Source: Octopus vulgaris
Lineage: Eukaryota
Assembly: GCA_951406725.2 (NCBI GenBank)
Contig: OX597827.1
Coordinates: 25,792,001-25,856,000, forward strand
Reading direction: 5' to 3'
Length of the DNA: 64,000 nt
Shown: piece by piece, positions 2,199-44,062 of the stretch
How the letters are laid out: every line of letters begins with the position of its first letter
How positions within the stretch are numbered: the stretch's first letter is position 1
Made by a program: the position numbers and the translations under genes
Notes under the pieces: model-generated
The model's database searches: none
The model's input: the letters and a program-made list of their open reading frames with translations, nothing else
Told to the model about the DNA's origin: nothing

Positions 2199-2350
2199 TA
2201 TCTGTAATATAATATGTGACAATTATTCGGTTGCCATAGTAAAACTCCGAATATGGCAACCGAATAATTGTCAGGTATTATATTACAGATAAATTCCTCT
2301 ATTTACATAATAGCGAGGTCTTATTCATTCTTTTGTTGTCATACCATTAC
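2199..2350 (+). mobile_element. Miniature PLE-derived fold-back (3' end only) in (TA)n
   Basis: Inverted arms 2199-2238 and 2252-2291 with a 13-nt loop. Tail 2292-2350 (aattcctctatttacataata..gaggtct..ttcttttgtt) matches the Penelope tail at 22609-22670. (TA)n on both sides. Confidence 0.8.
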
Positions 2351-3849
2351 TATGTATATATATATATATATATATATATATATATACTTATTTTGATTTA
2401 TCAAATTGTTAATATTTATATTTTCATCTTGATCACTTATCTCAAAAGTATATTTTTTCTGGAATTGTGCACAACATTATTGGGATATTTTATGAATTTG
2501 TTAAAGTTATTGTATGACATAAAGTTTAAGAAAAAAAAAAAAGTTTGCAAAAAATTTTCCTGCTTTCCAAAACTCTGTAACATCGATATTTGATAAAATG
2601 AAAATCTGAGAAGAAAACATATTCCATTAAAGGGCACATCCCAGATAATAACAGGTTGACTGTAAACAGATTCAAATTACAAAAGATATAACTATTATCT
2701 TTAGGTCAAGATATCTAAAGTAAAACCTTAGGCAGAATGAAAATGGTTTAAAAAAATATTTAACAAAACGTAGGCCAATTTGAACACGGATCACGAAAAA
2801 AAGTAAAGCTGCTCTATAATTATTTTCAGAAGGAATTTTATTTCAGAAATGTGTATTCCTTCAATTTAGTTATAAAATTTATAATTTTTTGATTCTAGAT
2901 ATTTTTGTAACAATTGCTTTTCCATATACTTGTTTTGGTTTTTTTTTTTTTGTAACCGTTATTATCTTTTTTTTTTCTTTTCAGAAAATTTAATTTCTAA
3001 ATGCAAACAACTAATTTTCTTGGCGTTATTCCTTTTCCTGAGATTGATTCATCTCGCATTTATAAATATTCTTATATTTCTCACAACTAACCATAGTGAT
3101 TATATGTCTATTTCGAGAAATGATCTTTTTCTAAAGCTCTTCTGCTGAGATTAGACCACTAACTTTCTTCTTTCTGTGTCTAACAACACTAACTTTGGAA
3201 CACAACATTCTCCAATAATTTTAGGAGACATATGTCTAGATATGTTTACGCACGTAGACGAGTTTCTAATTATATTCATATTTAAATTCGATCCATTCGA
3301 TTCTCAAACGTAGTTGAAAAATATCGCTCCATTTAGGAAAGAAATGGAAGATCTCTCTTGAAATCTCCAAAGCGGCACGTAAAATATAAATTGTGCTCCC
3401 TCGTTCTTCGACTGGGTTTTTGTTTGTCAAACTTTGTAGTATTTGAGAGCATCACTTTTATTACCTTGGGTCACTTGCTAGAGGCATTGAGAGAGGAAAT
3501 ACATGACTTGCAACAGCAATCAAATGCGTTGACAGACATCTCAAGCCATCCCCGATATCCGTTCCCGGAGTTCGGTCTAATTAAACCTTTGTCGACTTCG
3601 ATTGAATTTACACAATTACGCAAACACCAAATTAATAACTTATTGGTGTATGGCTCAACTTCAGCTCTCGTTAAAGACTCGAATGGCATTGTTATTTATC
3701 CTAACCATTGACGACCTACAATCATGAACATCCCAATCCATTTGAAGAGCTCACAACCATAATTTTGACAAATTCCACCGTAAGCTATATGATATCTGTT
3801 CCAACTATTGGTTTCGGATTTTGGTACAGAGCTAGCAAGCAAGTACAAG

Positions 3850-4030
3850 GTAAGGAGGTAATTCGATTACGTTTACCTCAGTACTTGACTGGTACTTATT
3901 TTATCGATCCCGAAATTATGAAAGGCAAAGTCGACCTCGGCGGATTTTAACTCAGAATGTACAGACGGATGACATGCTGCCAAGCATTTCATCCGGCGTA
4001 CTAACGATTCGGTTAGCTAGCCGCCTTATA
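3850..4030 (-). mobile_element. tRNA-derived SINE, family A (core gtcgactttgcctttcat...gtcgataaa..aagtaccagt)
   Basis: Reverse complement of the copies at 53172-53800. Confidence 0.75.
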
Positions 4031-4126
4031 GCCAATTGAAATATATACACAAACACATTTTTCTCTAGGCAGTATCGTATATAATTTATATATATATATA
4101 TATATATATATATATATATATATATA

Positions 4127-6008
4127 TAGTTGCGGCCAAAATGTTCAGAACGGCATTGCTTTCGTCAGAAAAGTAGATATAATTTTTTATCAAAGTTGTT
4201 TTATAATCTATAATTTTCAACGACAATAAATACGATATTATTTGTTATTGCTTGAGATTTTGGTGTAATTTGAGAGGATAATACAAAAGTTATGGATGAT
4301 TTAGTGATTTACTGCAAAACCCATGGCGGTCAAAAGGATCAGAACGGTTGAAAAAATAACAAAATAATCAAAAATGACAGAGAATACTGGAATTATTTAA
4401 TATTTAGTGTGAAGCCCTTTAACTTCAATCACACTCTGACATCTTCGACTGCATGAGGAAATTAAATTTTCAATTTCTTGCTGGGTGATCTTATTCCATT
4501 CTTCCTGAAGGGCATTCCATAATTGCTCAGTTGTTTTAGGATTTCTGGCTTTCGAACGTCCTCCTAGAATATTCCACACATTTTCAATAGGATTGAGAAA
4601 GAAATAATATAATTGTACGAAAATTCATTTTCAATTTTGTTCTCCGTAATATTGTGCGCTATCTATTTTAGCATTAAATTAATTATTATGTTGATGAGGA
4701 TACATTTACTAAGACAAAAGAACTCTGTCTTAAATATGACGTGTGTTTTCATCGTTAAATATCCAACGAATTAAAACGTTGATTGGAACAATCGCTCTAA
4801 ATATAATCGCACCTGCATACAGACATGCAAACACACACATAAGTATGGACATATATTAAGTTATACACACAATCCATAACAATAACCTTTTCAGCCTTGA
4901 GGAAGTTCATGACCACCTTAGCCTTGTGACATGGGGCATTGTCCTGCATGAATATGGGTGGTCGCTTAGTTGAATTTCTCAGCACAGGCAAGACATGATC
5001 TTTTACAAGTTGTTTATAAACACCTGCATTTTACTTTCCATGTAATCGCACCAAAGGGCCCACACCATCTCCAGATATCATTCCCCAAACCATGACACTT
5101 CCTCCACCAAATTTAACACTAGTCTTAAGGCATTTAGGCAACAATTTTTCACCTACTTTTCTACGAAAGTACCATTTCCCATCTGAGCCAAATGACATAA
5201 ACTTAGATTCATCACTGAAATGCACCGTTTGCCATTTTTCTTGAGACCACAACACATGTTCGGTTGCAAAGTTAAGACGACACTTTTTATTCTTGGAGCT
5301 GATCAGTGGCTTCACTGCAGGTGCTCTTGATTGTAGGTCATATTCAACTAAACGACCTGACACAGTTTTTCGAGATAAACTTTTCTTCAGTACAATGTTC
5401 ATTTTCCGAGAAACAGCAGCAGCAGTTTTAAATCTGTCCTTTTTAACCAACTTTACCATAGCACGATCTTCTCTCTTGGTCGTTTTTCTTGGCCTACCTG
5501 TAAACTTTCTTGCTTCACACGAACCACAATCATCGTAGACCTTAAGAATACCGTGTACTACACTTTTTGACTTGTTAACAATCTTTGCAATAGATCCAAT
5601 ACTTAAATTATCCTTCCTTCGAAACTTAATAATCTACTGACGAAATGGTAACGGAGTAAGTGGCATTATATTAACAAAGTACACTGCAAATATTCTTACT
5701 AATGTTTAGTAAACGAACCGTCACGTAAACAAATTCAAAACATTAGAGTTCGCCGGTTAAATATACTAAAACACGAAGTAAAAGCAACCGTCATGATCCT
5801 TTTGGCCGCCATGGGTTTTGCAGTAAATCACTAAATCATCCATAACTTTTGTATTATCATCTCAAATTACACCAAAATCTCAGACAATAACAAATAATAT
5901 CGTATTTATTGTCTTTGAAAATTATAGAATATAAAACAACTTTGATAAAAAATTATATCTACTTTTCTGACGAAAACAATGCCGTTTTGAACATTTTGGC
6001 CGCAACTG
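4127..6008 (-). mobile_element. Tc1-family DNA transposon with IR/DR-type ~224 bp TIRs
   Basis: TIRs 4127-4350 and 5785-6008 ([c/t]agttgcggccaaaatgttc...cgcaactg), TA flanks, and an internal direct repeat gcgg(c/t)caaaa.g.tcagaacgg at both ends of each TIR. Confidence 0.95.
4397..5666 (-). pseudogene. Tc1 (DD34E) transposase, disrupted
   Basis: Motifs VHFSDESKF, SVKFGGGSVMVWG, FMQDNAPCH, LNPIEN(V)WNIL. In-frame stops and a 276 bp insertion at 4596-4871. Confidence 0.92.
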
Positions 6009-42000: not shown

Positions 42001-43375
42001 CGAGCTGCCATTAAAGATCTTGTGGTACTTATGTAACATTAATTGCAAACTGGTCGAAGAATAAATAAATAGATTGATAAATTATTTGTAATTTTCTAAA
42101 ATACATCACAAATTCTGAGAGCAAAACATGAACAGGTGAATAGCTAAAATAATTACGGAGTGCATAGACTAAAAAAAAGGAAACAAAACAGAAAACATTC
42201 CTGAATATAAGGTACAAAATTGTGAGTGGTATTTGAAAGAATTATTCCCAGTTTCAATGTAATTTAGTGAGATCCATCATCATTTTATTAACTTTATTAG
42301 CGATATCTGTATAACCTTTCCACATTATTTTTATTGGGATTAAGAACCAAACAAAGGTACCAGAAGACATAGACTTAGATACATGCTTACAAACATACAT
42401 ATAAACATACTATACATGCATATATGTATGTACGTACGTATGTATGCATGTATGTGGATATGGGGAAACTGTATATATATATATATATATACACACACAC
42501 ACACACACACACACACACACACACACACACACACACACACACATATATATATATATATATATATACATATATATATATCAAGAGTAAGTGAGGGGAGAGT
42601 GCGAAAGACTGACAGAAAGTAACTTTTATTCAATAATTCTACTTCTACATGTATATGCATGCATCCACTCTACATACTCGGACTTACTCACGCACACACA
42701 CGTAATACATATATATTTGCATATAAATTTATCTATATGCATACGTATATACGTATGTATATATATATATATATATATATATGTTTACGTATGCATATAT
42801 ATATAATTGTATATATATATGTGTGTGTATAGATATATATATAAATATATGCATTTATATATGTGCATTTATATATATATATATATATATATATACATGT
42901 ATATATATGTATGTATATATACATATATATAGATATATATGTACGCGCGCGCGCGTGTGTGTATACATGCATACATACGTATATCCAGGCTTAAAAAGTA
43001 ATGCAAATGCCTATTGAATCAGTTTACGGCATGCTATCACGCACGAAACAAATCATAACATTTTTATTGCAACACACATCCTTGTCATATTTTGTATGTT
43101 TGTCAACAAAATATTGTAAACTTACCTTATTTTATTACCGTACAGATAAAATTTCATTTCAATATTTCACTTGAGTATTTCCAACATTTCAGTAACGTAA
43201 GAATTTCCATGATCTTATATTTTTGTCGTCTTAACATAATGTGGTGGCCATTTTAAAGGAGGTGAACTTAAATAGAAACGTGAATATGTTTGTTCTTAAA
43301 TGAAAAGCAATTTCACGTTGAATCCTAGCTTTCACATAAAGTGAAATATATTGATTCCTGAAGTGACTATCTATC

Positions 43376-43575
43376 AATATATCTATCTATCTATCTATCT
43401 ATCTATCTATCTATCTATCTATCTATCTATCTATCTATCTATCTATCTATATATATATATATATATATATATATATATATATATATATATATATATATAT
43501 ATATATATATATATATATATATATATATATATATATATATATATATATATATATATATATATATATATATATATA
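43376..43575. repeat. (ATCT)n plus long (TA)n
   Basis: Simple repeat. Confidence 0.95.
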
Positions 43576-43814
43576 CGTATATATATATCTTAGTAAGGAA
43601 AGACACACAAAAAAGAAAGAAGAAAGAAAAGGACCATTGATGCGGTCACAGAAGTGTGACGAAAGAACTCTAGCCGAAATGCGATTAATATAAAATAAAG
43701 CTGAAGCAAGTGAACACCAAATATATAGTGCGCGTATTTTTCTTGGCTAAAGTTGCAACATGACCATCCCCAAATGCAACAACACACACACACACACATA
43801 TATATATAAATATA

Positions 43815-44062
43815 ATCATATCAATGCGAAATGGAAATTAATAGAAATTCTCATTTCCAGTGGCCTAGCATGTAAAAATTTAGTCCATAAAATACAGTGT
43901 ACATTTAAACACACAAGGAATCCAAAATGTTTTTATTTTTTCATTTCTTTCTTGTCGAATTTTATCCCTACTTTTGTAGTTATAGGACGTAGCTGTTCTA
44001 TCTAGCGTGTTGAATCCCATGAGTGGCATCCTTATGTGTTTAAATAAACACTGTATTTTATG
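43815..44062 (-). mobile_element. Small fold-back unit related to 7772-8430
   Basis: Arms 43886-43919 and 44029-44062. The tail shares ccagtggcctagcatgta with the reverse complement of the 8357-8430 tail. TA-rich flanks. Confidence 0.6.

Follow-up and report, generated by a model that had tools for sequence, protein, structure and literature searches.

Fold-back units in (TA)n of Octopus vulgaris as probable Hydra-clade Penelope-like insertions with two hairpin-linked ends

We analyzed a window of 64,000 nucleotides (nt) from Octopus vulgaris (assembly GCA_951406725.2, contig OX597827.1, forward-strand positions 25,792,001 to 25,856,000), in which five fold-back units, here termed U1 to U5, are embedded in (TA)n microsatellites. 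We propose, with a probability of about 0.65, that U1, U3 and U4 are 5'-truncated insertions in (TA)n of Penelope-like elements (PLEs) of the Hydra clade, each consisting of two head-to-head copies of the 3' end of the element that began at two hairpin-linked starts. What is new here is that, in related elements of other animals, there are two alternative ends, each of which lies a few bases before one of two matching hairpins. The layout, the (TA)n targeting, the hammerheads, the inverted 5' copy, the one-sided tail, self-priming and the existence of two internal reverse transcriptase (RT) starts have all been published already, and the units themselves are ordinary debris, representing new families of a known clade with a known insertion pattern.

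All five units described in an initial annotation of the window are present, with arms, loops and tails as measured here; the layout it gave them, with two arms, a loop and a one-sided tail, also holds, except that U4 and U5 are reversed and bear the tail at the left. The arms of U1 (2196-2238 and 2252-2294) are identical at 40 of 43 positions around a 13-nt loop (E=7e-22), those of U2 (7767-7905 and 8229-8361) at 125 of 133 around a 323-nt loop (E=7e-47), those of U3 (19535-21067 and 21081-22611) at 1526 of 1531 around a 13-nt loop, and those of U4 (40621-40719 and 40739-40837) at 93 of 99 around a 19-nt loop (E=1e-74). U5 is the weakest of the five, with 34-nt arms of 91% identity (43886-43919 and 44029-44062) around a 109-nt loop. 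Arm similarity lies far above chance, that of U5 being modest (34 nt, E=1e-5). TA runs adjoin all ten unit ends, those at U5 being short and imperfect, against a background of 4.3% of the window lying within 5 nt of a run of at least four TA; target duplication is not readable inside (TA)n. Whereas the inverted repeats of DNA-type miniature inverted-repeat transposable elements (MITEs) extend to both termini, all five units carry an unduplicated tail of ~47-73 nt on one side. The contrast case is a Tc1 transposon at 4129-6006, which is likewise situated in (TA)n and has ~220-nt inverted repeats (95%) with no tail. Non-LTR retrozymes, for their part, are tandem units each with a type I hammerhead; the units in the window are inverted pairs.

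U3 is composed of a tail-less inverted copy on the reverse strand (19538..21084), with an open, 5'-truncated Hydra open reading frame (ORF), a 3' untranslated region (UTR) and a mirrored hammerhead, and a forward-strand copy with the tail (21081..22672, tail ~22609-22672), whose ORF is broken by two 1-nt deletions and one stop. The ORF of the inverted copy covers the end of the RT core, the thumb, the CxCx5C linker (CSCRNKELC), the GIY-YIG endonuclease (EN) domain and a CxxC motif (CGLC); the CxH motif, which like CxxC lies around the conserved E and N in the Hydra clade, reads CPH in the right arm and CPY in the left arm. The RT, linker and GIY-YIG motifs bear out the earlier identification of U3 as a Penelope-like RT/GIY-YIG element. 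The Pfam match to GIY-YIG is weak (E=0.0067, below the cut-off); in tblastn searches and alignment the ORF is continuous with full-length relatives that have a single ORF combining RT with a C-terminal GIY-YIG EN. We recovered 218 relatives at E<=1e-30 among 2044 candidates, with 38-52% identity among the 120 matches listed, and their consensus carries the Hydra-clade features RWK, DKT, CxCx5C, CxxC and CxH; the copy in the window is truncated before the N-terminal RWK and DKT motifs, which are known from this consensus and which, along with the lack of an IFD, mark the clade. No relative was found in viral contigs. Three window peptides of 11-12 residues are found exactly in Hydra-1_Obim (supplement of PMC8557442), and nearly all families of the Hydra clade insert in (TA)n and carry hammerheads (PMC8557442). 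By homology, U3 is classed as a young, 5'-truncated Hydra-clade PLE, its youth being suggested by a 1638-nt contig of sequencing run X3 that departs from the right arm at just 5 bases and 1 gap, and by the presence of at least half of the sampled U3 words in 19 of the 24 listed runs.

U1 is a sister subfamily of U3: its tail-less inverted copy (2199..2251, reverse strand) includes the 13-nt loop 2239-2251, which by eye, from homology to U3 and Hydra hammerheads, corresponds to the 3' part of hammerhead stem III, and it is followed by a forward copy with a tail (2252..2350, forward strand, tail ~2292-2350). U1-like sequence also occurs at loose ends in 44 contigs of run X1. As claimed earlier, the inverted arms of U1 and U3 stop at a homologous position (80% identity over 91 nt). 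U4 has its tail-bearing copy on the reverse strand (40574..40738), comprising the tail (40574-~40625), the arm, a hammerhead at 40663-40692 and probably the 19-nt loop; its tail-less copy lies on the forward strand (40739..40832), with a hammerhead at 40766-40795. As its hammerhead region matches the Hydra loci L003 (E=6e-6) and L020 (E=2e-5), U4 is taken as a putative second Hydra-type family. A stretch of ~15 nt matching the U4 loop at 44172-44186, ~110 nt to the right of U5, is possibly a U4-family remnant, and weak tblastn matches to Hydra proteins at 10440-10559 (E=3e-4) and 41517-41912 (E=0.005) are possibly older PLE remnants.

U2 and U5 stand apart from these. U2 consists of a tail-less inverted arm (7772..7905, reverse strand), a loop and a forward arm with its tail (8229..8429, forward strand, tail ~8357-8429), whereas U5 has a tail-bearing copy on the reverse strand (43815..43919, tail ~43815-43882, 34-nt arm) with no hammerhead, and a tail-less arm on the forward strand (44029..44064) that ends in a short TA run. 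Their tails share an exact 18-nt motif (8381-8398 in U2, 43857-43874 in U5; 2 matches against 0.03 expected), and U5 is tied to PLEs only through this tail, U2 itself having a canonical hammerhead. Neither has a match in the 93 Hydra loci described below or in the supplement of PMC8557442, and neither is linked to an ORF; a viral-contig match to the shared motif falls within a phage ORF and was taken as chance. The two probably arose in the same way, from another PLE lineage. The proposal that several PLE families target (TA)n is thus borne out for U3 by its ORF, for U1 by homology to U3 and for U4 by its Hydra-type hammerhead and tail hairpin, with U2 and U5 lacking an ORF link. Similarly, a fixed end point is seen within Hydra families and is not common to all five units, because the arm ends of U2 and U5 lie ~18 nt apart in alignment (by eye).

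Beyond the window, the comparison drew on 79 metagenome loci, taken from the top 80 among 504 confirmed stretches, and on 14 contigs that are filed under prokaryote genomes, 6 of which come from one assembly. The latter, presumably host DNA, are Hydra-PLE contigs inside prokaryote genome bins (L080-L093), an observation which suggests that such bins probably carry animal host DNA. Hammerheads were found in 95 rows, of which 4 were dropped by eye as spurious and 91 used; these fall into 59 crude families clustered on 30 nt, 44 of them readable for at least 75 nt. Downstream of the hammerheads lies a hairpin motif, NCTC-inner stem-loop-2-nt bulge (TY)-GAGN-ACT. A first copy (hairpin 1) is found in 31 of the 44 readable families (29/40 without those of the window) at 28-56 nt past the cleavage site, and a second (hairpin 2) in 15 families at a spacing of 55-83 nt from the first, as against 38 occurrences in 11,800 shuffles. 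The search pattern fixed the outer stem only and left the inner pairs free, yet the three pairs that follow it inward are of Watson-Crick type in 52/55, 37/51 and 27/39 cases across 56 distinct hairpins, where shuffling gave 25, 16 and 12 on average; C-G and T-A pairs are both frequent. This excess is confined to the 2-nt-bulge register, as 0, 1 or 3 bulged bases do not beat shuffles; pairing was counted by register, a MAFFT alignment of the hairpins having misplaced the variable loops. The outer pair, which is G-C in 53/56, is C-G in U1 and U3 and A-T in U4, with both sides changed. In the window, hairpin 1 lies in the tails of U1 (2296..2321, forward strand; CCTC/GAGG outer stem, 2-nt bulge), U3 (22614..22639, forward strand; CCTC/GAGG outer stem, TT bulge, few bases past the tail-less end) and U4 (40595..40619, reverse strand; ACTC/GAGT outer stem, 3-nt bulge). 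In full-length loci such as L004, L006, L010, L021, L026, L049, L060 and L071 both hairpins are placed between the hammerhead and the start codon of the long ORF, and many hairpins are preceded by AT-rich, target-like bases. The twin hairpins are visible in the published Hydra consensus sequences of PMC8557442, the main text of which contains neither "hairpin" nor "stem-loop"; a search of the open literature, with subscription papers outside its range, found no description of a conserved or duplicated PLE tail hairpin.

We then compared ended copies with longer relatives. The 20 pairs were picked by hand; duplicate comparisons, a contig end, a cross-family row and two internal TA-like rows were set aside. 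In every pair, 0-10 nt separate the insertion end from the hairpin that follows, and 18 of the pairs are compatible with a distance of 5-6 nt. Sixteen of the ends are at hairpin 1 and correspond to the tail-less end; the remaining 4, one of them via a related family, are at hairpin 2 and correspond to the tail end. Thus, there are two fixed end sites per Hydra family, usually with one site per end of a fold-back unit, and because insertions end just before either hairpin 1 or hairpin 2, tail length matches hairpin spacing. TA-bounded copies number 43. Thirteen of them include hairpin 1 and terminate 43-70 nt beyond its start; of the remaining 30, 25 terminate 31-59 nt past the cleavage site. 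The tail end of the U3 family runs into (TA)n in 4/4 runs (36 contigs in X1). In L049 and L071, forward elements have their 3' end at the tail-less site, and no inverted partner is seen. Two further observations concern such junctions. At L020 420-505, (TA)n directly precedes hairpin 2 in an otherwise full-length element, as if an insertion end had met a second copy. CTGA directly precedes several of the TA runs flanking U2 and U3 (7684-7718, 8497-8501 and 19514-19519), and 8 of 146 oriented TA flanks have CTG as their final trinucleotide.

The turn of U3 (21064..21084) consists of CATT at 21064-21067, the 13-nt loop at 21068-21080 and AATG at 21081-21084, that is, a 4-nt inverted microhomology around the loop. 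Loose ends in runs X3 and X7 supply U3-family sequence upstream of 21081, from which it is apparent that the loop continues the tail-less arm. The two arms share two bases (21376/20771 and 21592/20555) at odds with the family sequence in each of the four runs, with more than 99.9% of the summed depth of X1 showing the other base at 21376 and 21592; these shared private bases suggest that both arms derive most simply from one molecule. The arms differ from each other at 6 sites, and right-arm-private bases have some depth in X1; with 5 errors in the right arm and 1 in the left, the counts are too few to call an excess in the second-made arm. Other one-tailed fold-back units, complete or near-complete, are L090 7420-7704 (loop 7), L090 8112-8522 (loop 60), those of L080 (loop 771) and L072 (loop 1846), and L092 9144-9900. 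Judged by eye, it is the tail-less arm that carries the extra loop sequence in U3, U1, L090 8112-8522 and L092 9144-9900, and the tail-bearing arm that carries it in U2, L090 7420-7704, L080, L072 and probably U4. As either arm can be the longer, two complementary DNAs (cDNAs) are favored over a single snap-back with a fixed stop; given the four units that have their loop on the tail-less arm, two start sites are the better reading of the fixed points.

In light of these patterns, we posit that the two copies are likely reverse-transcribed from nicks on opposite target strands. One copy would start just 5' of the first conserved RNA hairpin, giving the tail-less end, and the other just 5' of the second hairpin ~60 nt further on, giving the tail end, so that the tail would be the stretch between the two hairpins. 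The hairpins may be where RT docks on a read-through RNA, on which two active sites, perhaps those of a dimer, could work together. The antisense cDNAs would then be joined at their 3' ends, either by fold-back on a short microhomology or by mutual annealing, and subsequently copied to pair with the partner; for very short loops, one cDNA may snap back or both may stop near the same RNA end. We more tentatively suggest, as a proposal we hold to be somewhat less than an even bet, that the duplicated covarying bulged hairpin is a two-site dock, with two RT-EN protomers binding one read-through RNA and priming on opposite (TA)n strands ~5-6 nt upstream of each hairpin before the cDNAs are joined at their 3' ends. 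If this were true, one signal would account for the tail and its family-specific length, for the head-to-head inversion and, since an insertion never carries hairpin 2 at its 3' end, for the requirement of tandem donor copies.

The initial annotation favored a different course, close to the self-priming idea of PMC3846280: synthesis of a single cDNA begins at the tail end, this cDNA snaps back and serves as its own template, and copying halts, or the product is cut, at a fixed point where the tail begins. The short loops of 7-19 nt in U1, U3, U4 and L090 7420-7704 speak for this, as in toy simulations two independent truncations differ by 20 nt or less in only 2-10% of cases, and the 4-nt microhomology and shared private bases of U3 fit the copying of one cDNA. 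Yet the loop on the tail-less arm in the four units named above needs a second cDNA or a template switch, and the tail-less-site ends of L049 and L071 occur on forward elements. We therefore regard a lone cDNA with a fixed stop as rather improbable; the fold-back at microhomology in U3 stands, and a snap-back step may be retained in the two-start reading as one joining route. Another possibility is that the hairpins are DNA signals for the GIY-YIG endonuclease, recognized in single-stranded cDNA or in an extruded structure, with the ends representing resolution cuts instead of RT starts. The tail has been attributed to EN-mediated resolution (PMC8557442), the D. virilis tail is needed for EN recognition as cited in PMC11167929, covariation cannot separate RNA from single-stranded DNA, and the target-like, AT-rich bases before many hairpins would suit a DNA signal. 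Against this, tail-bearing insertions lack hairpin 2, as would be the case were it left on the RNA, 3' of the point where synthesis begins, and in Poseidon_Ac (PAc) the tail ends map onto measured RT start sites (PMC11167929); we consider it an unlikely explanation.

Finally, U1, U4 and U5 might be self-propagating non-autonomous elements or DNA MITEs, or the palindromes might be assembly artefacts. The small palindromes are indeed short, lack ORFs and lie in TA like the true transposon at 4129-6006 with its terminal inverted repeats, but they have one-sided tails, hammerhead remnants and PLE homology that the Tc1 control does not share, and no second copy with the same junction occurs within the window. 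The 6 differences between the U3 arms, with some depth in X1 for the right-arm-private bases, weigh against these readings as well, as does the same layout in unrelated assemblies, and we judge this whole group of explanations very improbable indeed. The related suggestion that the small units form a mobile class is weakened: every junction seen is unique, and U1 and U4 hold the first hairpin only. They are probably dead insertion stubs, which, with hairpin 2 left uncopied, would fall short of a full template. Taken as a whole, the earlier interpretation is partly supported.

Several points weigh against the reading in terms of two hairpin-linked starts. Besides the hand selection of the end pairs, the position of each end is uncertain by several bases owing to TA microhomology, and the ended copies of 7 of the 20 pairs come from the loci of one assembly (L080, L086, L090 and L092). 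L090 3584-7429 has both ends 31 nt after a hammerhead and no tail, and the 18 listed loose ends (there are 358 further) do not include the tail-less TA junction at ~22608. The variants shared by the U3 arms could have come from gene conversion or a rare donor copy. In X1, 3 of 12 joints are between opposite strands, with offsets of 216-770 nt, which indicates that near-symmetry is not the rule, and the turns of U1 and L090 7420-7704 show little or no microhomology. The strict hairpin motif is lacking in 13 of the 44 readable families, some of which have variants; the covariation count ignores relatedness; the grouping into families, based on 30 nt, is crude; the folds of individual tails are weak (z +0.15 to -1.9); and hairpin 2 of the window's own families is unseen, as it lies beyond the tail end. 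A generic bulged-hairpin scan, which misses U1 with its non-T bulge and matches 180 of 2000 random 70-nt windows, found no hairpin motif in the tails of U2, U5 and a further unit at 48.4 kb. In PAc the RT starts did not differ between strands and are in an AC-rich stem loop inside the ORF (PMC11167929), as opposed to the duplicated 5'-UTR hairpin here.

With respect to the hammerheads, a descriptor that in 60 shuffles of the window gave 0.22 motifs on average and never more than 1 found 6 in the actual sequence: one in U2, one in each arm of U3 and of U4, and one at 48466-48540. This agrees with the earlier count, with motifs in U2, U3 and U4, U1 cut inside stem III and none in U5. Among the Rfam matches listed (150 of 175) there was no hammerhead family, only microsatellite and hairpin microRNA matches. 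The U2 motif (8117..8216, forward strand) is a canonical type I hammerhead with a CTGACGA core, a long stem II and a palindromic stem III. The U3 motif (22518..22568, forward strand) has a CCGAAGA core and that of U4 a CCGATGA core; U3-family contigs of runs X3 and X12 show no difference at the CCGA core, which accordingly looks like a family trait. In hammerhead numbering we take this rare change to be U4C. By contrast, CTGA is present in 85/85 locus rows and in all Hydra rows of File S2 of PMC8557442. U4C is a known natural hammerhead variant with lower activity in vitro (PMC3088659), and hammerhead activity is dispensable for PAc insertion in vitro (PMC11167929). In its helices and position the predicted U3 hammerhead fits the Hydra 3'-repeat hammerhead, with U4C in the core. 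Ribozyme cleavage as the cause of the U1 truncation was considered and rejected, since by eye the turn lies ~8 nt upstream of the predicted cleavage site. The motif at 48466-48540 is canonical and belongs to a TA-flanked unit (48423-48721) absent from the initial annotation and without an inverted arm, which probably represents a further PLE family. The unit opens with bases that read as the 3' half of the Hydra hairpin in reverse, possibly by chance, and in alignment a 72% identical relative at 23994-24152, bounded by the TA run at 24153, stops ~14 nt sooner.

These units share much with systems already on record: layout, TA preference, hammerheads, opposite-strand pairs and self-priming are spread over PMC8557442, PMC11167929, PMC3846280, PMC3088659, PMC4209133, PMC13282606 and bioRxiv 10.64898/2026.07.22.740005, with the inverted layout and the self-priming idea found in PMC8557442 (Fig. 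2 legend and Hydra section), PMC3846280 (discussion) and PMC11167929. In the Hydra clade (Craig et al. 2021, PMC8557442) the nearest element is Hydra-1_Obim, with the same RT-CxCx5C-GIY-YIG order, CxxC and CxH near the C-terminus, (TA)n and type I hammerhead; the U3 family is distinct from it in having another hammerhead and a protein ~60% identical by eye. Stem III of U3 and U4 is that listed for Penelope-3_HM, stem I of U4 that of Hydra-2_aMil, and an inverted 5'-truncated copy like those in the window is noted for Penelope-13_HM, whereas the window tails are 47-73 nt as against 30-40 nt, and the cores CCGA as against CTGA (PMC8557442). PAc (Frangieh et al. 2024, PMC11167929) cleaves and extends both strands, and two internal RT starts bracket its genomic tail; both-strand extension, an AT-rich target and two internal RT starts are thus in common, although inverted insertions are not treated in the portion of its main text considered. 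The pseudo-long terminal repeats of Adineta vaga Penelope elements (Arkhipova et al. 2013, PMC3846280) share head-to-head copies, an optional tail and junction palindromes read as self-priming, but an antisense RNA template is proposed there, while here two antisense cDNAs from a sense RNA are inferred, with ends tied to hairpins. Minimal PLE hammerheads and non-LTR retrozymes (PMC4209133; bioRxiv 10.64898/2026.07.22.740005) have type I motifs and a palindromic stem III in common with the units, and opposite-strand motif pairs 100-700 bp apart have been noted for them (PMC4209133). Unlike retrozymes, the window units do not form tandem arrays, and nothing indicates that they spread independently.

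Other repeats accompany the units. A 28-bp minisatellite of 11 units occupies 7107-7413, and its inverted copy, the 28-bp tandem units in the U2 loop (7906..8086, forward strand, 82-87% identity), may be captured local DNA or part of the UTR of the U2 family. The minisatellite follows a 3' end that we presume to be that of a short interspersed element. An internal 276-nt piece of the Tc1 element (4596-4871) recurs at 1851-2126 with 99% identity, a mariner-like element with ~195-nt inverted repeats lies at 62229-63461, and the diverged palindromes at 61095-61330 and 58951-59163 are MITE-like, with no TA flanks in our scan. At L089 4300-5502, a ~310-nt tRNA-like repeat beside TA is both tandem and inverted, like a PLE-mobilised passenger.

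The origin of the one-sided tail and the inverted junctions is named as an open question in PMC8557442, and the in vitro answer to it is only partial, for one Poseidon element. A short, covarying and duplicated signal that predicts both ends across many Hydra families would be mutationally testable, and would be a candidate RNA address for RT-based writing into AT-rich DNA. For annotation, it furnishes a rule by which a TA-flanked palindrome with a one-sided tail and a hairpin is to be read as a PLE stub and not as a MITE.

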